Shown one piece after another: positions 6,142-59,536 of a DNA stretch of 64,000 nucleotides. The DNA lies in the NCBI GenBank assembly GCA_902761715.1, contig CACWLK010000008.1, positions 8,307 to 72,306 of the forward strand. Reading direction: 5' to 3'. The notes below the pieces were generated by a model. The model saw only the letters and a list, made by a program, of their open reading frames with translations, had not been told where the DNA came from and did not search any database. This DNA comes from an uncultured Rhodospirillales bacterium. GTDB taxonomy: Bacteria; Pseudomonadota; Alphaproteobacteria; RF32; CAG-239. The number at the start of each line of letters is the position of its first letter. Positions within the stretch are counted from its first letter, which is position 1. Made by a program: the position numbers and the translations under genes.

Positions 6142-6831
6142 TCAAAAACCAATTGCTAACCAATGCCATGTGCCGAGATCGTTACTGCCAACCGTAAAAT
6201 CAGTTAAAGAGTGATCCAGCACAGAGGCGGTGGAATATGTAATGGGCGGAGTGGAACCGACAGAATGTGTCAGTGAAATGCAATACGAGTTGCTCGTAAA
6301 CGGAATTTCAAACGTACAGGTTTCTCCGGCACTGTCGCTGAGTTCGATTGTTCCCCACTGCATAAGCAGTCCGCCGGCAAATTTGATATGATTGGTCCCT
6401 TGACTGACGATGTTGCCTCCGTTGATAAAAGCTGTGGTAGCAACATTGGGGGATAAGTCATCCGATGCCGGAGTTACGGCTTGTAGCGTGCCTTCAAAGA
6501 TTTTGTCGCCGACAATGGTTTGTTCGGTATCAAGTGTCATGTAAGTTTGGTCATATGCCTCAATAACGGCATTGATGTTATCAATTCCGTCCTGCACGGC
6601 ATTATTAATTGAGGTAATTGACTGTGTGGTTTCAATATCTATTACCTGCTTTTGATCATTTACATAGTCGGATAAATCAGGTTTGCTGACCGAGGCCACA
6701 TGGTCATCTATCTCACTTTTTCCGTATTTTACATATTTCAAATCAGCCGTGGTATTGAGAGCGGCTTCGTCCTGAAAGCAGACATTAAGATCTTTAGAGG
6801 CATAATTTTCAAAAATGTTTATCTCTGTCAT
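6142..6831 (-). CDS. tail fibre protein
   Basis: Start ATG 6831 (MTEINIF...). The C-terminal segment ...KFAGGLLMQWGTIEL...FEIPF... resembles the short C-terminal domain common in phage tail fibres. Position is distal in the tail module. Confidence 0.55.
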   Translation of the reverse strand: MTEINIFENYASKDLNVCFQDEAALNTTADLKYVKYGKSEIDDHVASVSKPDLSDYVNDQKQVIDIETTQSITSINNAVQDGIDNINAVIEAYDQTYMTLDTEQTIVGDKIFEGTLQAVTPASDDLSPNVATTAFINGGNIVSQGTNHIKFAGGLLMQWGTIELSDSAGETCTFEIPFTSNSYCISLTHSVGSTPPITYSTASVLDHSLTDFTVGSNDLGTWHWLAIGF

Positions 6832-47240: not shown

Positions 47241-48968
47241 TTAAAAGAGTTCAAGTTGCTTTTTCTCTTTTTGATATTTTTTATTTTCTTCTTCGTCTGC
47301 ATATCGCCAAATGTAACCACCGGCAGTGTGTCTAATCCCTTTTAGTACCATTCCAATATTACCACTGCTAATTTTCATTTTACGTGATGCATCAGATATT
47401 GATATAAATGTCTGTATAATCTTATTAGTTTTAGGATTAATCATATTTACAGCTTTCCGTTTTGCTTGTGTAGATTTTTCTATTCCGCATATTTTACAAC
47501 CATATCCATATATTCTATGGCTAATTGAGGTTTCATATTCATAACCACATTTAGGACATAGCCACCAAACTTTATGATCAGACCCTGGCTTGAACATATT
47601 GGGAGTTAATTTCCCATTTTTACTAGGATGCCATTCTTTCGCAATTTCAGGGTAAAGTTCACCTAAAGATCCTTTTTTATATTCTTGACTATATTCATTT
47701 AATATTTTTAACCTGTCCCTTCTAATATTAACATCGTAATCATATGATGTAAAAACATGATTTCTGGAAGCTGAAAAATCTAACATATGTAAAATGCGAG
47801 GAATGAATGTATCTAAATTTTCTTCTGTATATAAATCAGAAATACAAATACATTTATCAGCAATATTTGTGTATTTTTCGTCTTTTTCCTTCAAGCGGAT
47901 TAATTGTATATCATTAGCCTTACATAATTTGTATTTTTTCTGTTCTCTTTCCCTCTTATTTTCTTTATGCCAAGCCATTCCATCATATTCTATTGCAATT
48001 CTTGTGGAAGGTATAAATATATCTAATTCCATTTTGCCTAGAAATGGAGCTCTATATCTATTTATAGCATCTGGGTATATCTTTTTGATATAAAAATAAA
48101 ATGCCTGTTCTGCAAACGATGTTTGCCTTCCCGAATAACATATGGGACAATTTGTCCCGCTATTTGTCCTTTTGTTCACGGTGGATTGGTATTCATGACC
48201 ATGTGGACAAAGCCACCAAACTTTTTTACCATAACCATAACTGACTTTTTCCGGTGTCAAATTACCATTTTTTGTCGGATGCCATTCTTTTGCTAGTTCC
48301 GGGTGTGTTGTCATTAAATCATTTTTTCCAATAACCACCACTTTATTCGAACAGCATGGGCATCCTCTCTTCAGTTTTGCTCTATTACTTATTCTTGCTT
48401 CCCAATTATAACCACACTTTTCACATATCCACCATACTTTCTTGGGATTACTAGCAAGCACCTTATATGGATCGACTTTCGTATTTTTTTCATAATCCCA
48501 TTCCTTTAGCAATTCAGGATTTGTAATAGTCAGGTTTTTCTTATCTAGCACATTTTGTTTTTTACAGTCGATACATCCTATATAATCTCCAATACTTCTT
48601 TCTATTTCTTTTCCACAAATATGACACTTCCACCATGCTTTGTAACGAGAATTTCTTGTGAACATATCTGGGGTTAGTTTTCCGTTCCTTGTAGGATGCC
48701 AGTCTTGTATTATACCAGCGGGAATCTGGAAAGAAGATCTTTTTGCTTTGGACCAACGGCCGTAATGGCATTTTGGACAACTCCTACCATCATGTGCACG
48801 GTGACTGATTGAAGATTGCCACTTGTGACCGCAAAGATAACATTTCCACCATACCTTTTTTTGACTGCCGAGAGTCAATTCTTCTGGAGAAATTTTATTC
48901 GCTTCCCAATCCCATTCTTGCATGAGATGTTCGTCATCTATTATGTATTTCTTTGGTGCTTGTGGCAT
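47241..48968 (-). CDS. selfish-element-like protein with five zinc-ribbon repeats, a PD-(D/E)xK-like nuclease core and a C-terminal homing-endonuclease-type HTH
   Basis: Five repeats of L..EW(D/H)..KN..P......KKVWW.C..CG..W...I..R.....CP.C. Central ...ELDIFIPSTRIAIEYDGMAWH... nuclease-like core. The C-terminal ...IQTFISISDASRKMKISSGNIGMVLKG..HTAGGYIWRY is NUMOD/IENR-like. Markedly AT-rich. Start taken as ATG 48968 (MPQAPKK). Confidence 0.7.
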   Translation of the reverse strand: MPQAPKKYIIDDEHLMQEWDWEANKISPEELTLGSQKKVWWKCYLCGHKWQSSISHRAHDGRSCPKCHYGRWSKAKRSSFQIPAGIIQDWHPTRNGKLTPDMFTRNSRYKAWWKCHICGKEIERSIGDYIGCIDCKKQNVLDKKNLTITNPELLKEWDYEKNTKVDPYKVLASNPKKVWWICEKCGYNWEARISNRAKLKRGCPCCSNKVVVIGKNDLMTTHPELAKEWHPTKNGNLTPEKVSYGYGKKVWWLCPHGHEYQSTVNKRTNSGTNCPICYSGRQTSFAEQAFYFYIKKIYPDAINRYRAPFLGKMELDIFIPSTRIAIEYDGMAWHKENKREREQKKYKLCKANDIQLIRLKEKDEKYTNIADKCICISDLYTEENLDTFIPRILHMLDFSASRNHVFTSYDYDVNIRRDRLKILNEYSQEYKKGSLGELYPEIAKEWHPSKNGKLTPNMFKPGSDHKVWWLCPKCGYEYETSISHRIYGYGCKICGIEKSTQAKRKAVNMINPKTNKIIQTFISISDASRKMKISSGNIGMVLKGIRHTAGGYIWRYADEEENKKYQKEKKQLELF

Positions 48969-49153
48969 ATTGTTCCCTCTGGCTGTATATTCGCATTTAC
49001 GCTTTATTTTTGCAACCAAAAAACATCATGCCTTTTTAATAATAAACGTCATCGCTCCAAAAGCGTAAGTCTTTTGGTCAAGCGATCTTCTATATTGTTT
49101 TAAAACAAGGAAGATCCCTGGACGATTTTGCAAGCAAAATCGAGGGATGACTT

Positions 49154-49847: not shown

Positions 49848-52592
49848 TTACTCGTCTTCTTCTTGAGTTTCCGGCTCGGTAATATCCTCAATGTTGAGGT
49901 CGCTGTCATCGGCAACGCTTTCGCCCAAGACTTCAGAACCGGTTTCGTTTTCCAGCTCTTCCTCGTCTTCGGAGTCAGCATCAAGCCAAGTTACAGATAC
50001 GACCTTTTCTTTGTCTCCCGTACGGAACAAGATTACACCTTGTGTCTTACGTCCGGCAATACGAATGTCTTCTACAGGCATGCGGATAAGTTTGCCGCCG
50101 TCGGTTACCATCATAATTTGGTTGTCGTTCTCAATCGGGAATGAGCTTACAACCTCTTTGTTACGAGGAGACATTTCCATGTTGGCAATACCCGAACCGC
50201 CACGACCGGTAACACGATATTCATAAGAAGAAGAACGTTTACCATAGCCGGTGCAGGTTACGGTCAAAATAAACTGCTCGTTGGCTTGCATTTCGGCAAA
50301 TTTTTCAGCGGTCAACAAGTTGAGCAGACCTGTGTCTTCTGCCTTTATGCCGGCTACGCCGTCATGTTCGGCTTCCATACGTTTGATGGCTGAAACAATC
50401 TTGGCGTATTCATCACGCTCTTCTGATGTAGCGTCGCTGTGCTTCAATACCGACATTGAAATAACTTCATCTTTGTCAGCAAGTTTGATACCACGTACAC
50501 CGACCGAATTACGTCCGACAAATACACGAACCTCAGTTACCGGGAAGCGGATGCATTTACCGCTCTTGGTAGCCAACATTACGTCGTCTTTTTCGGTACA
50601 GATACGAACGTTAATCAGCTTGTCGTCATCATCAAGTTTCATTGCAATTTTGCCGTTGGACTGAATGTTTACAAAGTCCATAAGGCTGTTGCGACGAACC
50701 ATACCGCTCTTGGTTGCAAACATAATCGACAAGTTTTTGCAATCAGCCTCTTTTTCCGGCAACGGCATAATGGTGGTAATGTTTTCGCCCTCGTCAAGCG
50801 GCAACAGGTTTACAAACGGTTTGCCCTTTGAGGTCGGAGAACCTAACGGCAATTTATAAACTTTGAGCTTGTAAACCAGACCTTTGGACGAGAAGAACAA
50901 AACCGGCGTATGGGTAGAGGTTACAAACAAGCGAGATACAAAATCTTCTTCTTTGGTAGTCATACCCGATTTGCCTTTGCCACCGCGTTTTTGCGCCTTG
51001 TAAGCATTGAGCGGAACACGTTTGATATAGCCGGCCTCGGTTACGGTAACAACCATATCTTCACGCTGAATAAGAGATTCAACATCTTGTTCAAACTCAA
51101 ATTCTTCAATCTTGGTCAAGCGTGGAGTTGCGTACTCATCTTTAATGGCAATTAATTCATCACGCATAATGCCATAGAGCTTTTCACGGCTGCCCAAAAT
51201 AGACAGGCATTCTTTGATTTCATCGCCCAAGTTATATAATTCTTGGTGGATTTTATCACGCTCCAAACCGGTCAAACGTTGCAATCTCAAGTCCAAAATG
51301 GCTTTGGCTTGAGCTTCGGACAAATGATAATGTCCGTTCTCAACCTTGCGGTCAGGCTCGTCAATCAAAATTACCAAAGGTTCAACATCGCCGGCCGGCC
51401 ATGCTCTCGCCAGCAAGGCATCTTTGGCTTCTTGCGGTGACGGAGCTGTACGAATAAGCTCGATTACGGGGTCAATATTTTCAACCGCAATTGCCAAACC
51501 GACCAATGTATGAGCGCGATCACGGGCTTTGTTCAGCTCGTAAATGGTGCGGCGACGAATGACTTCTTCACGGAACTCTATAAATGCAGCAATAATGTCT
51601 TTTAAGTTCAACATCATCGGGCGACCGCCGTTGATGGCAAGCATATTCATACCAAAACTGGTCTGCAACGGAGTGAGTTTGTAAAGCTGATTTAAGATAA
51701 CATCGGCTTGGACATCTTTTTTGACTTCAATAACCACGCGAACACCTTGACGGTCGGACTCATCGCGGATGTCAGAAATGCCCTCAACTTTCTTTTCTTT
51801 AACCAGTTCGGCAATACGCTGAACCATAGCGGCCTTATTGACCTGATAGGGGATTTCGTGGACAATGATTGCCTCTCTGTCCTTGCGGATCTCCTCAATA
51901 GTGCATTTAGCACGCATAACAACAGAACCACGTCCGGTATAATATGCAGACTTGGCACCACTCTGCCCCAAAATTAAACCACCAGTCGGGAAATCAGGTC
52001 CGGGGACATAATGAATGAGTTCATCAATGGTAATATCCGGATTGTCAATATATGCACAGCAGGCCGAAATAACCTCGCCCAAGTTGTGAGGAGGAATGTT
52101 GGTGGCCATACCGACGGCAATACCGTTGGTGCCGTTGACGAGCAAGTTCGGATAGCGAGCCGGCAAAACAATAGGCTCTTGCAAGCTTTCATCATAGTTG
52201 GGCATGAAGTCAACGGTGTCTTTGTCAATGTCTTCAATCAAAGCATGGGCAACTTTGGCGAGCCTTGCCTCGGTGTAACGCATAGCGGCGGCACCGTCTC
52301 CGTCCATTGAACCAAAGTTTCCTTGTCCGTCAACCATCGGAACACGCATGGCAAAAGGTTGAGCCATACGAACCATTGCATCATAAACCGAGCTGTCGCC
52401 GTGCGGGTGATATTTACCCAAAACATCACCGACGATACGGGCTGATTTACGGAACGGACGGTTGTAATCATAGCCATTCTCAAACATTGAATAGATGATG
52501 CGGCGGTGAACCGGCTTTAAGCCGTCACGGACATCAGGCAATGCACGAGAGACAATAACACTCATTGCATAGTCGAGGTAAGAACGGCGCAT
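49848..52592 (-). CDS. gyrA: DNA gyrase subunit A
   Basis: [49 protein letters not shown] (QRDR), [10 protein letters not shown] (active-site Tyr), C-terminal beta-pinwheel repeats and an acidic tail. The ORF starts only 3 codons before SYLDY. Confidence 0.95.
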
Positions 52593-52660
52593 TACTTATG
52601 CCCATATAAAATGGGCAAATTCCTCTCTACGGGCAAAAAAACGCCCTTTAAAACGATTTT
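52392..52660. repeat. gyrA 5' end plus 5'UTR/promoter-proximal region, copy 1 of a long direct repeat
   Basis: The 201 coding nt (52392-52592) match 53742-53942 with 2 mismatches. An upstream 44-nt block, ATGCCCATATAAAATGGGCAAATTCCTCTCTACGGGCAAAAAAA, is identical at 52598-52641 and 53963-54006. Looser similarity continues further. Confidence 0.9.
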
Positions 52661-52794
52661 GGTTAAAATTAAAATGAAAAAGTTAACGATATTTCACTGT
52701 AGCGCCATAAAAAACGATTAGACAATTTTGTCAAAAAGTAAAAAAACAAATTATTATTTCAAATAACTCATTGAAATATAATAATTTATTTATA

Positions 52795-52823
52795 TTGAGC
52801 AAAGGTTAAAAATATGGTACAAT
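52795..52823 (+). promoter_or_regulatory. strong sigma70-type promoter with extended -10, firing toward the 125-aa ORF
   Basis: TTGAGC, 17 nt, (TGG)TACAAT, inside a very AT-rich stretch. Confidence 0.45.
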
Positions 52824-53075
52824 ATAATTACAAAATAATTATTAGCATTTATTAATTTAACACAGGTAGGTAAGGAAGAACACGAGTTCATTTATATTGT
52901 TGAAAGACTGCATGACACGCGGCGCCCATATTATTGCTTTTGCATAATATAATCGTACAAGGTATGGTTTAGGGATCAGAATATAAGGCAATATATTGGA
53001 TTTTAAGTATTCCCCAGGGATTTGTGTTATTATTTAAAGGAGGCGATTCTGAGGCACGGAAGTGCGTAAAGGGTC

Positions 53076-53453
53076 GTGGTTAGTATGGGAAACATGATTA
53101 ACTTTGTCGTCAGCAATCCTTGGATGTGGGTCCTTGTCGCTCTGGCTCTCATTCCTCTCGGGTGGGGGTTAGTCGTATTCGCAGTTCAGCTCTACAGCTC
53201 AGCGCGTGGAGAGAAATGTGTCGAAAAATTTAAGGAGTTCTGGCAGTATTGCGTCCGACTGGATCGCGACAGCTATCATCATGGATGGAGCAAATTGTTC
53301 TACAACAAGTTTGTGCGGCTACTGATGATTGTGTCTCTGTATTTTGTATGGGGATACGTTCTCGTGCTGCTCGGGCTTGCTCTTGGATGGCTCTTCAAGA
53401 TTATCTTCGGTAATCTATGGAAAGGCATTAAAGCACTCTACAACATGATCTAA
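53076..53453 (+). CDS. small membrane protein (two to three TM helices)
   Basis: 125-aa ORF (GTG 53076, or ATG 53085/53094). Hydrophobic helices WMWVLVALALIPLGWGLVVFAV and LLMIVSLYFVWGYVLVLLGLALGWLF. By eye more GC-rich than its surroundings. Confidence 0.5.
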   Translation: MVSMGNMINFVVSNPWMWVLVALALIPLGWGLVVFAVQLYSSARGEKCVEKFKEFWQYCVRLDRDSYHHGWSKLFYNKFVRLLMIVSLYFVWGYVLVLLGLALGWLFKIIFGNLWKGIKALYNMI

Positions 53454-53471
53454 CTTCTCCATTCTCATAGC

Positions 53472-53500
53472 AAAAAAGCCTCCATTACGGGGGCTTTTTT
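53472..53500. terminator. bidirectional intrinsic terminator between the 125-aa ORF and the porin fragment
   Basis: AAAAAAGCCTCCATTACGGGGGCTTTTTT. Confidence 0.65.
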
Positions 53501-53561
53501 GTTTAAGTTGTTGTGCAATGAAAAAATAAATACCGCTTCACCTGCAAGGCAGGAAAACAGC

Positions 53562-53942
53562 CTACCAGGCATAATTGAAACTGGCGCCAAGGGCATACGC
53601 ATCATAAGAGCTGCCGAAGGTGTAGTTAGCCCAGGCATAAGCTGACAGAGCGTCGGTAAAGCCGTAACGTCCGCCAATCTCGATACATCCCAAGATTTGG
53701 TCAGAGTATGTGCCAGTCTTGTTCATACCGCTTATGGTTACGCTGTCGCCGTGCGGGTGATATTTACCCAAAACATCACCGACGATACGGGCTGATTTAC
53801 GGAACGGACGGTTGTAATCATAGCCATTCTCAAACATTAAATATATGATGCGGCGGTGAACCGGCTTTAAGCCGTCACGGACATCAGGCAATGCACGAGA
53901 GACAATAACACTCATTGCATAGTCGAGGTAAGAACGGCGCAT
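53562..53942 (-). pseudogene. chimeric ORF: gyrA codons 1-67 fused in frame to the last ~59 codons of a foreign beta-barrel porin gene
   Basis: MRRSYLDY...GKYHPHGDS is identical to gyrA except for S to L, then ...[36 protein letters not shown] (OMP-type C-terminus ending in an aromatic residue). It is preceded by a copy of the gyrA 5'UTR. Confidence 0.8.
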
Positions 53943-54025
53943 TACTATTTTTTATGCAACTCATGCCCATATAAAATGGGCAAATTCCTCTCTACGGGCA
54001 AAAAAATGCCCTTAAAATCGATTTT
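53742..54025. repeat. gyrA 5' end plus upstream region, copy 2
   Basis: See copy 1. Offset is exactly 1350 bp in the coding part. Copy 2 has 15 extra nt between the ATG and the conserved block. Confidence 0.9.
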
Positions 54026-54080
54026 TTAAAAAAATTCCAAACTTAAAAATTAACTAATTTTGTCTGTAGGGTCAAAAAAA

Positions 54081-54112
54081 GAGGGCACATTTTGATGTGT
54101 CCTCTTTTTTTT
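54081..54112 (-). terminator. intrinsic terminator after the 353-aa gene
   Basis: AAAAAAAGAGGGCACATTTTGATGTGTCCTCTTTTTTTT. Confidence 0.65.
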
Positions 54113-54129
54113 GCTAAAATGATTTGCCT

Positions 54130-55191
54130 CTAGCCATTGATGACTGATGCAAATGCCTGAGCCTGCGTGAGCGGAGTTTCGCCTCTGCGGAGCATGTCTC
54201 TGACATAGCGATGAGTCATTTCGTTGGCATCAACAGTCAAATTCCATCCGTCTTCGCTACAAACAGGAATGAGCTTGGTCCAGTTGATGCCAAGTGCACG
54301 AGCCTCAGATATCAGGTTCATCTGTTCACCAGTGAATATAACATCCGCATTGTTGTTAGCGGCAACGTAAAGTGCCATGTAGTATCCACTAGCGTTAGCG
54401 TTGTTGACCTTTATGTGCCCCTCCCCCATTTCATCCATGATAATGAAGGTCGGACCTTGCTCGGTTGTGGCCAACACCAGAACGGTTTGTTTTGGGATTC
54501 GTCTACACCGTAACACGTCAATTGCGGCGTTCTGCGGACCGAAGTCATTGCTTTTGTCACTGCAAGTGCAAGAACGTAAGCTATGAAAAACCACATAGAT
54601 ATCTCGTCCTGCGGCTTTTGTCATAGCGAGATCAGCTGTGGTGAGAAACTGTTCTACGGTGTTTTCTTTCCAGTGGTCGGGATTGCTTTCAGTAGGATCA
54701 GCAACACGACCGCCAAAGAAGAAATAAAGCGCCGGAAAACAGCCGAGGATCGCATTACATACTGCAGTAATGTTGTTCTGGGCAAAATCAGCGGCATAAT
54801 TGCGCATGACTTCAACATCGGGAGCGGCGACAAGATCAGCCGGAAGCAAAACTACGTTGCTGACCACTCCGGCAATACGATACTTGTCGAGAACCCATTG
54901 TGGTGCGATGATGGTCAAACGGGAACAGCGGAGATCTTGCAAATTTTCGTATCCGTAACGATCCGTTGCAAGAACCATCGGGTTGCCGGCACCGTACTTT
55001 TTGAGAAGATCAAACCCCATTCTTCCTGCGGAAACCAGGGTTATATCTTCGTCAAAAGTGCCAAAACCCATGTCCATTGCGTCGATAATCGTCGAGTTTG
55101 GAGCCATTGACGCAAGAGCCTTAACAGAGGTGCTACAACCTTTGTTCGTGGATTCATTTGTTAAAAAAACATACTTTGCCATTTTTGTCAT
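54130..55191 (-). CDS. hypothetical protein (353 aa)
   Basis: Long ORF with no motif I recognise. A 100-nt sample is ~53% G+C, versus ~37% and ~50% in 100-nt samples of neighbouring pheT and gyrA. Confidence 0.55.
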   Translation of the reverse strand: MTKMAKYVFLTNESTNKGCSTSVKALASMAPNSTIIDAMDMGFGTFDEDITLVSAGRMGFDLLKKYGAGNPMVLATDRYGYENLQDLRCSRLTIIAPQWVLDKYRIAGVVSNVVLLPADLVAAPDVEVMRNYAADFAQNNITAVCNAILGCFPALYFFFGGRVADPTESNPDHWKENTVEQFLTTADLAMTKAAGRDIYVVFHSLRSCTCSDKSNDFGPQNAAIDVLRCRRIPKQTVLVLATTEQGPTFIIMDEMGEGHIKVNNANASGYYMALYVAANNNADVIFTGEQMNLISEARALGINWTKLIPVCSEDGWNLTVDANEMTHRYVRDMLRRGETPLTQAQAFASVING

Positions 55192-55312
55192 TTTAAAATA
55201 ATAAAAAAATAATTATTTAACACGGGGCATGTTATAACACATATTTAAAAATATAACAACTAAAAACCGCCCTCAAAGGAGAGCGGTTTGGGTTGTCCGG
55301 TGATTTGGGAAA

Positions 55313-58803: not shown

Positions 58804-58883
58804 TTTTCCTTATTCTTAAAAAATAAAAAAGAGTCTGGCCTGATTGCTCAAGCAGACTCTTCTTTCGCATTTATTAAAATTGC

Positions 58884-59240
58884 TTATTTTAAAGCGTCCT
58901 TAGCTTGCGCAACTAACTTGGCAAACGCCTCGGGCTCTTTTAATGCGATATCGGCCAAAACTTTACGATCAAGCTCAATACCTGCTTTGTTGAGCCCGTT
59001 CATAAATCGAGAATATGTCATATCGTTAAGTCTGGTCGCAGCACTGATACGTTGAATCCAGAGCATACGGAAATTTCTTTTCTTTGCGCGTCTGTCACGG
59101 TATGCATATTGCAAACCTTTTTCAACTTTTTCGATTGCTACTCTAAATACGTTTTTGGAACGACCGCGGTAACCTTTCGCCATTTCAAAGATTTTTTTAT
59201 GACGAGCACGAGCCGTTACACCTCTTTTTACACGAGACAT
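58884..59240 (-). CDS. rplT: 50S ribosomal protein L20
   Basis: [17 protein letters not shown]...GYRGR... Confidence 0.95.
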
Positions 59241-59252
59241 CTAACTATCCTC

Positions 59253-59450
59253 CTACAAATATGGCAAAAATTGTTTAACAATCTGAACATCGCTGGTATC
59301 AACCAAAGTTGTACCGCGAGCCTGTCTTTTCATTTTTTGAGTTTTGCAGAAGAGGCAGTGTCTCTTTTTGGCAAAATTTCTTTTTAATTTGCCGGTTCCG
59401 GTAACGCTAAAGCGTTTTTTAACCGAACTTCTTGTTTTCATTTTTGGCAT
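59253..59450 (-). CDS. rpmI: 50S ribosomal protein L35
   Basis: MPKMKTRSSVKKRFSVTGTGKLKR... Start moved to ATG 59450 (GGGAAG upstream). Confidence 0.9.
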   Translation of the reverse strand: MPKMKTRSSVKKRFSVTGTGKLKRNFAKKRHCLFCKTQKMKRQARGTTLVDTSDVQIVKQFLPYL

Positions 59451-59536
59451 TTTGCTTCCCTTTCTATAAATTTTTGGATGCGAACAAACGGCAACAGGCA
59501 TGCCTTTTAGCCCGTTTACCGAGATTAACGTTGTGG

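Follow-up and report, generated by a model that had tools for sequence, protein, structure and literature searches.

The window analysed here is a 64,000-nucleotide (nt) stretch of contig CACWLK010000008.1 from an uncultured Rhodospirillales bacterium. Our subject is its gyrA locus, in which the region upstream of gyrA and part of the coding sequence occur twice (Table 1). Copy 1 belongs to gyrA itself, whereas copy 2 forms the head of a chimeric open reading frame (ORF) that ends in the remnant of an autotransporter β-domain. Between the copies lie an AT-rich spacer, the gene of a small membrane protein (ORF122) and a terminator that serves both ORF122 and the chimeric ORF. The next gene on the upstream side of copy 2 is referred to as geneX. 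Coordinates are on the window scale unless a locus is named, and we denote loci of other assemblies by L and sequencing runs by X. The organism is a ruminant-gut alphaproteobacterium, probably of the gut lineage RF32, and its relatives are labelled 'uncultured Azospirillum sp.' or are alphaproteobacterial metagenome-assembled genomes.

The initial annotation of this DNA had described 201 nt of gyrA, with sequence upstream, recurring 1350 bp away with two substitutions, and a repeat search and BLASTN agree on this. The repeat search pairs 52392–52596 with 53742–53946 at 99% identity (205 nt, spacing 1350) and 52594–52660 with 53959–54025 at 94% (67 nt), and the similarity found by BLASTN reaches 52392–52713 against 53742–54080. 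In the BLASTN alignment, the two coding differences are ATC>ATA, which is silent, and TCA>TTA (Ser>Leu). The region upstream of copy 1 consists of a proximal hairpin block (52594–52660) and a distal promoter block (52661–52713), matched in copy 2 by a proximal block (53959–54025, 94% identical to copy 1) and a distal block (54026–54080). Each coding copy ends at GyrA His-Gly-Asp-Ser, which we take to be the equivalent of Escherichia coli Ser83. In the window, copy 2 is joined in frame to a 59-codon β-barrel tail (53741..53562), giving an ORF of 126 amino acids (aa). The insert-plus-direct-repeat topology that was first described is genuine: the repeat search and contigs that span the locus agree.

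Table 1 Features of the gyrA locus and the terminator-bracketed segments of the window
Feature	Position	Strand	Basis
gyrA (914 aa as called)	49848..52592	-	ORF list; Pfam PF00521
Repeat copy 1, coding part (true gyrA codons 31-97, ends His-Gly-Asp-Ser)	52392..52592	-	Repeat search; alignment
Collapse point, copy 1 (158 nt missing)	52593..52594		Unitigs of X1, X2, X3, X13; full form in L003-L007
Repeat copy 1, region upstream of gyrA	52594..52713	-	Repeat search; BLASTN; fold z -3.8; block kept in relatives
AT-rich spacer between copies (GC 0.29)	52661-53075		Composition
ORF122 promoter, TTGAGC, 17 nt, TG-n-TACAAT (overlaps TATAAT)	52795..52828	+	Promoter scan
5' leader of ORF122 transcript	52844..53084	+	RNA contigs; lineage comparison
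ORF122, 122/125-aa ORF (start 53085/53076), small membrane protein with two transmembrane segments	53085..53453	+	ORF list; RNA contigs
Bidirectional intrinsic terminator, common to ORF122 and chimeric ORF	53469..53503	both	Fold
Autotransporter β-domain remnant, last 59 codons and stop	53562..53741	-	Homologues; PF03797 in full-length relatives
11-nt microhomology at novel junction	53742..53752	-	Intact alleles; L093 alignment
Repeat copy 2, coding part (gyrA codons 31-97, head of chimeric ORF)	53742..53942	-	Repeat search; ORF list; alignment
Collapse point, copy 2 (143 nt missing by alignment to full forms)	about 53946..53947		Full form in L003-L005
Repeat copy 2, region upstream of gyrA	53947..54080	-	Repeat search; BLASTN; alignment
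geneX terminator	54074..54111	-	Fold z -5.4
geneX (353 aa), neighbour upstream of copy 2	54130..55191	-	ORF list; homologues upstream of gyrA in L015, L097
Terminator-bracketed segment (GC 0.43, no clear ORF)	28201-28262/28542-28603		Duplicated hairpin
Terminator-bracketed segment	39618-39659/40308-40349		Duplicated hairpin
Terminator-bracketed segment	49154-49212/49788-49846		Duplicated hairpin
Terminator-bracketed segment	63249-63292/63907-63950		Duplicated hairpin

The full repeat and its novel junction

The repeat is longer than the window shows, and the window sequence lacks support at two small points inside it. We compared it with Logan unitigs of four runs that carry the window strain without mismatch (X1, X2, X3 and X13). 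These have 158 letters between 52597 and 52594 and 151 letters between 53943 and 53948, and no unitig in the four runs supports the adjacency of the window at either point. Missing from copy 1 are 158 nt that would complete the gyrA leader and supply the ribosome-binding site and codons 1–30. The full form is present in the assemblies of L003–L007, in which gyrA has 944 aa, its N terminus being 30 codons longer (MTEETMEENVIANVVDKPAQDITPVDISEE) and preceded by a ribosome-binding site and additional leader; gyrA of L065 and L097 is also 944 aa long. Apart from a different collapse of 90 nt (L001 about 1351–1421), L001 matches the window at 100% identity, so that public contigs contain this repeat collapsed in three different ways, by 158, 143 and 90 nt. 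The true gyrA start is lost in every case, and gyrA is consequently called as 914 rather than 944 aa. Because 30 codons are lost, what had been numbered as codons 1–67 are codons 31–97, and part of the supposed 5′ untranslated region is a product of collapsed assembly; the recurrence itself stands. In the full form, a near-identical core extends from the palindrome AAAATCGATTTT to codon 97 (429/431 nt, 6–14 mismatches, 97–99% identity), the next 75 nt upstream are 58% identical between the copies, the spacing is 1511 nt and the chimeric ORF has 156 aa.

At the junction between gyrA and the barrel tail, the two genes have the 11-mer ACGGCGACAGC in common, read as CAC GGC GAC AGC in gyrA and AAC GGC GAC AGC in intact autotransporter alleles and encoding (H/N)GDS. 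In gyrA it occupies codons 94–97 (HGDS). The chimera reads KYHPHGDS followed by VTISGMNK, compared with TFTNGDS followed by VTITGMNK in the intact autotransporter of L093. Contigs from seven runs (X1, X2, X4, X6, X10, X15 and X18) match the window as far as 53752 and then continue into an intact autotransporter (...ACC AAC GGC GAC AGC GTA ACC...). As the join falls on an 11-mer that encodes GDS in both genes, the fusion is automatically in frame. We calculate that about two such 11-mers should be common to a pair of ~3-kb genes by chance, so the match needs no special explanation.

The junction recurs in independent material. Contigs of L003, L004 and L005, from different samples and assemblers, each span geneX, the 156-aa chimeric ORF, ORF122 and gyrA, and contigs of L001, L002 and L012 cross the junction between the gyrA copy and the barrel; in total, it is found in contigs from at least six samples and independent assemblies. 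In four runs, drawn from three studies, unitigs with k = 31 cross it at roughly the depth of the genome: X1 (53723–53771, 49 nt, depth 49.9 versus 38–46 in the flanks), X2 (53723–53771, depth 4.2 versus 6–7), X6 (53722–53782, 61 nt, depth 10 versus 8–12) and X15 (53723–53787, 65 nt, depth 10 versus 6). Insert, flanks and junction are equal in depth in X1, and the depth of the repeat unitig is ~1.3–2.7 times that of its flanks. In studies of the cattle gut dated 2019–2025, the composite haplotype is common.

These data bear on the possibility, raised by the initial annotation in case no reads were to span the repeat-to-insert junctions, that the structure is an artefact in which strains of two arrangements were co-assembled or a repeat was collapsed, and that the molecule does not exist in nature. 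In favour of an artefact, the repeat in the window is indeed affected by assembly errors, and the contigs of several assemblies break there. However, unitigs and spanning contigs cross the junctions, and the shared stretch of 11 nt is far below any k used, although the junction is present in k = 31 unitigs at genome depth. So short an overlap between gyrA and the autotransporter could not have led any de Bruijn assembler to make up the junction. Together with the number of samples and the even depth in X1, this leaves an artefact with almost no probability.

Two native arrangements and the origin of the composite

Relatives have two arrangements upstream of gyrA. In the first (D-type), ORF122 or a member of its family lies beside a single gyrA start. 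Such an arrangement is found in the sister lineage L013, in which ORF122 is next to gyrA, and in X18, in which gyrA, a single-copy gyrA start and ORF122 all lie on one unbranched 28-kb unitig of depth 68 that diverges from the window at 53553. It is also found in the conspecific loci L103–L105, which combine an intact autotransporter, a convergent ORF122-family allele (34% identical) and a gyrA that is 97.3% identical to that of the window. An intact autotransporter is convergent to ORF122 in L093 as well, and the more distant L100 has the order pheT, geneX, autotransporter, convergent small ORF and gyrA; L060, also more distant, has autotransporter and gyrA. In the second arrangement (R-type), L097 has pheT, autotransporter, geneX and gyrA, without the insert and with a distal block of the copy-2 type, and L015 has geneX and gyrA. 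In the window haplotype, the left half corresponds to R and the right half to D. The single-copy region upstream of gyrA that had been suggested as a check in relatives is thus found in X18, L103–L105, L097 and L013. Among 80 loci of relatives, a second gyrA start was found in none outside the species of the window.

We propose, with a probability of about 0.7, that the locus is a structural haplotype of a ruminant-gut alphaproteobacterium that arose when two native versions of the sequence upstream of gyrA recombined. Version D would have comprised autotransporter, terminator, convergent ORF122-family gene, gyrA promoter and gyrA; version R would have comprised geneX, gyrA promoter and gyrA. 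One end would have been joined illegitimately at ACGGCGACAGC, between gyrA codons 94–97 (HGDS) and the autotransporter NGDS, and the other resolved by homologous exchange in flanking sequence (gyrA, or geneX and pheT). The route could have been homology-facilitated illegitimate recombination of linear DNA or, equivalently, the integration, by a single crossover, of a 1.5-kb circle that had been closed at the 11-mer. The product is geneX, a full gyrA promoter and leader, gyrA codons 1–97 fused in frame to the last 59 autotransporter codons, the terminator, convergent ORF122, a second full promoter and intact gyrA. One illegitimate join and one homologous exchange would explain why only the promoter and codons 1–97 are duplicated, and two parents would explain why the distal edges are as unlike as orthologous regions of other genera while the core is 97–99% identical. 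The core (~430 nt) would then be recent or kept alike by gene conversion, and the distal edge (58%) would reflect differing parental ancestry. The intact gyrA retains a complete promoter, so gyrase should be unaffected, and loss of the repeat by pop-out would delete ORF122, which we offer as a reason why the composite has not been lost.

A tandem duplication within a version-D chromosome would give the same junction. Unequal exchange or slippage between the 11-mers would have duplicated the unit from the autotransporter tail to gyrA codon 97, after which geneX and its flank would have taken the place of the upstream copy with its full autotransporter, ORF122 and AT-rich spacer. The junction is exactly as expected of a join at direct microhomologies ~1.5 kb apart, and the order in L100 (geneX, autotransporter, convergent small ORF, gyrA) could be ancestral. 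However, such a duplication should have left a second ORF122 and AT-rich spacer, which are absent in every assembly: the promoter and gyrA codons 1–97 are present twice, and ORF122, spacer and barrel tail once each. A single duplication date also predicts identical distal edges, whereas the distal blocks are 58% identical and the rest 97–99%, and the copy-2 distal block is that of the single-copy haplotype L097. As two events are needed as well, we consider this route unlikely.

Several points weigh against the two-parent origin that we favour. The event is read from its products, and we infer both the order of the steps and what kind of DNA took part. Instead of being a parent, L097 could have been derived from the composite by pop-out, and, as it is a single MEGAHIT contig, its path through the repeat could be mis-resolved. 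X18 contigs were matched to the window at a threshold of 92% identity, and its geneX may simply fall below this. The near identity of the core beside a distal edge of 58% needs an added assumption, either conspecific parents that differed only upstream or later gene conversion. Assemblers can swap variants between copies, which makes conversion tracts in L003 copy 1 unreliable; a gene-conversion reading of the mosaic in that copy was rejected on these grounds. A route of DNA exchange (natural competence or another) is assumed for the organism. Finally, the non-functionality of the chimera, discussed below, is judged from few substitutions in a frame that is still open. A sliding identity profile of gyrA against L013, L065 and L003 gave a mosaic throughout the gene and no clear breakpoint that would mark the crossover.

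The two-parent origin has parallels in known systems. Homology-facilitated illegitimate recombination, according to the summary in PMC6382021 of work by de Vries & Wackernagel 2002, Prudhomme et al. 2002 and Meier & Wackernagel 2003, produces joins of 3–10 bp beside a homologous anchor. The locus has a comparable short illegitimate join (11 nt, ACGGCGACAGC), a possible anchor on the opposite side (gyrA, or pheT with geneX), extra DNA beside that anchor and two differing, putatively parental arrangements in the same species (X18 and L103 for D, L097 for R). It differs in being read from sequence rather than known from experiment, in having a conspecific haplotype rather than foreign DNA as the donor, and in a product that duplicates ~0.5 kb of the promoter and 5′ end of an essential gene. 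Microhomologies at the join points of bacterial tandem duplications have reportedly been described by Reams and Roth (Cold Spring Harb Perspect Biol, 2015). The locus shares with these a single novel junction at a short direct repeat, an in-frame hybrid ORF and the retention of complete parental gene function; it departs from them in that the duplication is confined to the promoter and 5′ part of gyrA, with no upstream counterpart of the remaining unit, and in that the distal edges differ. Campbell-type insertion-duplication likewise leaves an insert between direct repeats of the homology segment, and pop-out would give a locus like that of L097, but replicon, integrase and vector sequences are absent here and the 1.5-kb circle is hypothetical.

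The insert had first been taken for foreign DNA, a convergent-gene junction captured from another genome, perhaps by the process behind the terminator-bracketed cassettes of the window. Its topology, with an insert between direct repeats, the presence of four other small cassettes bracketed by duplicated terminators, and the raised third-position GC (GC3) of ORF122 (0.58) and of the barrel tail (0.57), above the 0.42 ± 0.05 found for the genome (16 long ORFs), would all agree with capture. Nevertheless, the module is native beside gyrA in conspecific and sister lineages (L103–L105, X18 and L013), the autotransporter family is multi-copy in related genomes and the GC content of the module, 0.46 versus 0.47 for gyrA and 0.48 for geneX, equals that of its neighbours. 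No transposase or integrase domain was found in ORF122, the chimera or geneX, and no inverted repeat at the insert, which is flanked by a repeat of ~0.5 kb, whereas the other cassettes are low in GC and have repeats of 42–62 nt. The claim of a foreign origin is therefore largely refuted, and we regard such a capture as highly improbable.

ORF122, the autotransporter remnant and the chimera

ORF122 is a working, strongly transcribed gene. Between 34% and 53% of the sampled words of 52600–53760 occur in each of 16 metatranscriptome runs from ten studies, and every RNA run examined yielded a contig or contig pair from ~52844–52932 to 53381–53480 (~600 nt at longest). The RNA contigs begin at 52844–52876, just downstream of the promoter, and end at 53441–53480. 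These ends bear out the near-consensus extended –10 promoter and the bidirectional terminator that had been noted from the letters alone; the latter has a predicted fold of –21.2 kcal/mol (z –6.0) on the plus strand and z –4.1 on the minus strand. By contrast, gyrA and geneX have little or no RNA contig signal in the runs examined. The recorded protein is the 122-aa form with an ATG start; an exact look-up of the 125-aa GTG-start form gave no match. ORF122 had also been thought more GC-rich than its surroundings, which holds for GC3 and not for its overall GC (0.463, with 0.467 for gyrA and 0.476 for geneX).

No Pfam or NCBIfam family matches ORF122. Its ~ten distant relatives are 119–135 aa long with two hydrophobic segments, and in the family W13 and W89-G90 are invariant and N11, P24, W53, N74 and R78 nearly so. 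A scan of JGI metagenomes with ORF122 found no relative, and one with the family alignment found three loci only. The ratio dN/dS is ~0.35; the central loop is hypervariable, without third-position bias. Within one species, the slot beside gyrA contains alternative ORF122-family alleles (34% aa identity between the window and L103), and the slots of this family lie at 2095–2703 in L103, 2775–3393 in L107 and 2759–3390 in L109. The promoter is kept in all three of these loci, and in L103 it is kept together with most of the ~230–250-nt leader upstream of the 34%-identical allele. Within the window-type allele, across lineages in which the ORF varies at 29/366 sites, the leader has 2 variable sites in 241 nt, and it may be a cis-regulatory RNA. 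The consensus fold of four leader sequences has a covariation term of –0.81 and the single-sequence fold has z –1.9, values too weak for a structure claim, and an Rfam cmscan of 52300–54300 returned nothing near the gathering score.

The tail of the chimera, first described as the 3′ end of a porin gene, belongs instead to an autotransporter β-domain: its homologues are named autotransporter β-barrel, and full-length relatives match PF03797 (E = 7e-25 and 1e-10). The remnant aligns to the C terminus of their autotransporters (type Va secretion), matching the family in its 59-aa tail and its aromatic β-signal NYAW. A complete barrel would have ~250 aa, a passenger and a signal peptide, whereas the window keeps the last 59 residues on a GyrA head, that is, about a quarter of a barrel without signal peptide or passenger, and a conserved Arg is replaced. 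Judged by these features, the remnant cannot function as a barrel. Over the tail, Logan depth reaches 3–12 times that of the genome, which indicates that the autotransporter family is multi-copy; two members lie at contig ends in one related genome, and others lie near gyrA in L097, L100 and L060. Aligned to the L093 autotransporter, the tail is a different allele, and the divergence is mostly synonymous (pS 0.81, pN 0.12), suggesting that it was in a working gene until recently.

The substitutions in the 156-aa gyrA'::autotransporter ORF suggest that it is a decaying by-product, probably a pseudogene without function. Copy 2 of all strains carries the Ser>Leu change, L003–L005 also have Leu>Pro in the invariant SYLDYAM motif, and the Arg lost from the barrel tail, in the motif LGR(I/V)E(I/V/L)GGR, has become Cys. 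The reading frame is open in all strains. From the RNA runs examined we recovered no contig of the chimera, nor any of gyrA. Alternatively, the duplication could be kept for a function, in which gyrase expression is modulated, or a regulator or an agent directed against gyrase is titrated, by the GyrA(1–97) chimera or by the additional gyrA promoter, or the repeat could be kept because its loss removes ORF122. That the composite is common in cattle-gut studies although direct repeats of ~430 nt should recombine out would fit such retention, as would the open frame and the high expression of ORF122. The non-synonymous changes affect invariant GyrA and barrel residues, however, single-copy haplotypes persist within the same species and no chimera RNA was recovered, although the lack of gyrA contigs tempers this last point. 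Overall, retention for function seems improbable.

Neighbouring features and implications

The interval from pheT to gyrA, as read from the loci compared, is a rearrangement hotspot, with multi-copy autotransporters, a fast-evolving geneX and a strongly expressed small membrane protein whose alleles are swapped. In some strains a full autotransporter of 1112 aa lies between pheT and geneX (L097 5537–8875; L003 9685–10788), where the window has a 120-nt spacer (55192–55312). geneX, which has no family in Pfam or NCBIfam, is 87–92% identical in nucleotides between strains with flanks of 96–98%, and its aa identity is ~50% in the next relatives; it looks fast-evolving or often exchanged. Further upstream, a segment just before pheS (58869–59508) gives the only other RNA signal in the last 20 kb that is comparable to that of ORF122, in two of four RNA runs (X25 and X30); L097 has ribosomal protein L20 at the matching position.

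The block upstream of gyrA is kept across these gut alphaproteobacteria. It comprises GTTAAC, AAAATCGATTTT (a perfect palindrome), two occurrences of a T-run with GCCCGTAGAG after it, and GGGCATAAGTT, and lies at 52594–52713 and 53959–54080 in the window, and at 6690–6910 in L015, 300–510 in L060 and 10540–10750 in L100; such conservation probably reflects promoter and operator architecture. The block is missing in L065 and L107, in which the gene of an ABC-type substrate-binding protein (L065 5804–6911; L107 1353–2467) ends 3–16 nt before the gyrA start codon, suggesting that gyrA is co-transcribed with this gene. A misassembly of L065 was considered and dropped, as L107 has the same arrangement.

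The four terminator-bracketed segments of the window are 340–690 nt long, between terminator hairpins of 42–62 nt that are 90–98% identical. Three of the four are low in GC (0.33–0.35) and have small orphan ORFs, and no Pfam or NCBIfam family matches the cassette ORFs. The cassette at 49.2 kb is absent from L003, of the same species, and from L013, both of which have a single terminator, and L097 has the same bracket with partly different content. The gyrA locus had been likened to these cassettes, and the topology is indeed alike; the likeness goes no further, given their low GC (0.31–0.38) and short terminator repeats. The gyrA repeat and the four cassettes might still stem from one recurrent, undescribed insertion process that copies 40–500 nt of flanking target, with the ORF122 slot as a dedicated exchange site beside gyrA, but we give this little credence. 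PeSL elements of T4-type phages, which Arbiol, Comeau and Krisch are said to have described in 2010, are repeat-flanked regulatory cassettes. With their small genes between repeated regulatory hairpins, exchangeable by recombination, they resemble the four cassettes and, loosely, the gyrA locus. The setting here differs in being a bacterial chromosome, in which each repeat pair is a different local terminator and the gyrA repeat is promoter and coding sequence. Nearby, a 592-aa ORF (47241–49019) with five DUF4379 treble-clef zinc-finger repeats and NUMOD/I-HmuI-like motifs resembles a homing endonuclease; repeats of 100 nt occur inside it, its GC is as low as 0.34, and its length differs in other strains (450 aa in L003).

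The locus is a scar of rearrangement in native DNA, known in kind and polymorphic in the population. Its repeat leads assemblers to lose the true gyrA start, so that gyrA is mis-annotated as 914 aa in the window, in L001 and in other contigs. The second PF00521 match, from the 156-aa ORF, can inflate estimates of 'contamination' that are based on single-copy markers. As the copy stops at the residue corresponding to Ser83, which is the main one in quinolone resistance, it could also confuse typing of the quinolone-resistance region. For the biology of these bacteria, the locus offers a clean natural microhomology-mediated join for which public metagenomes yield both putative parents and the composite, as is seldom the case among uncultured gut bacteria.

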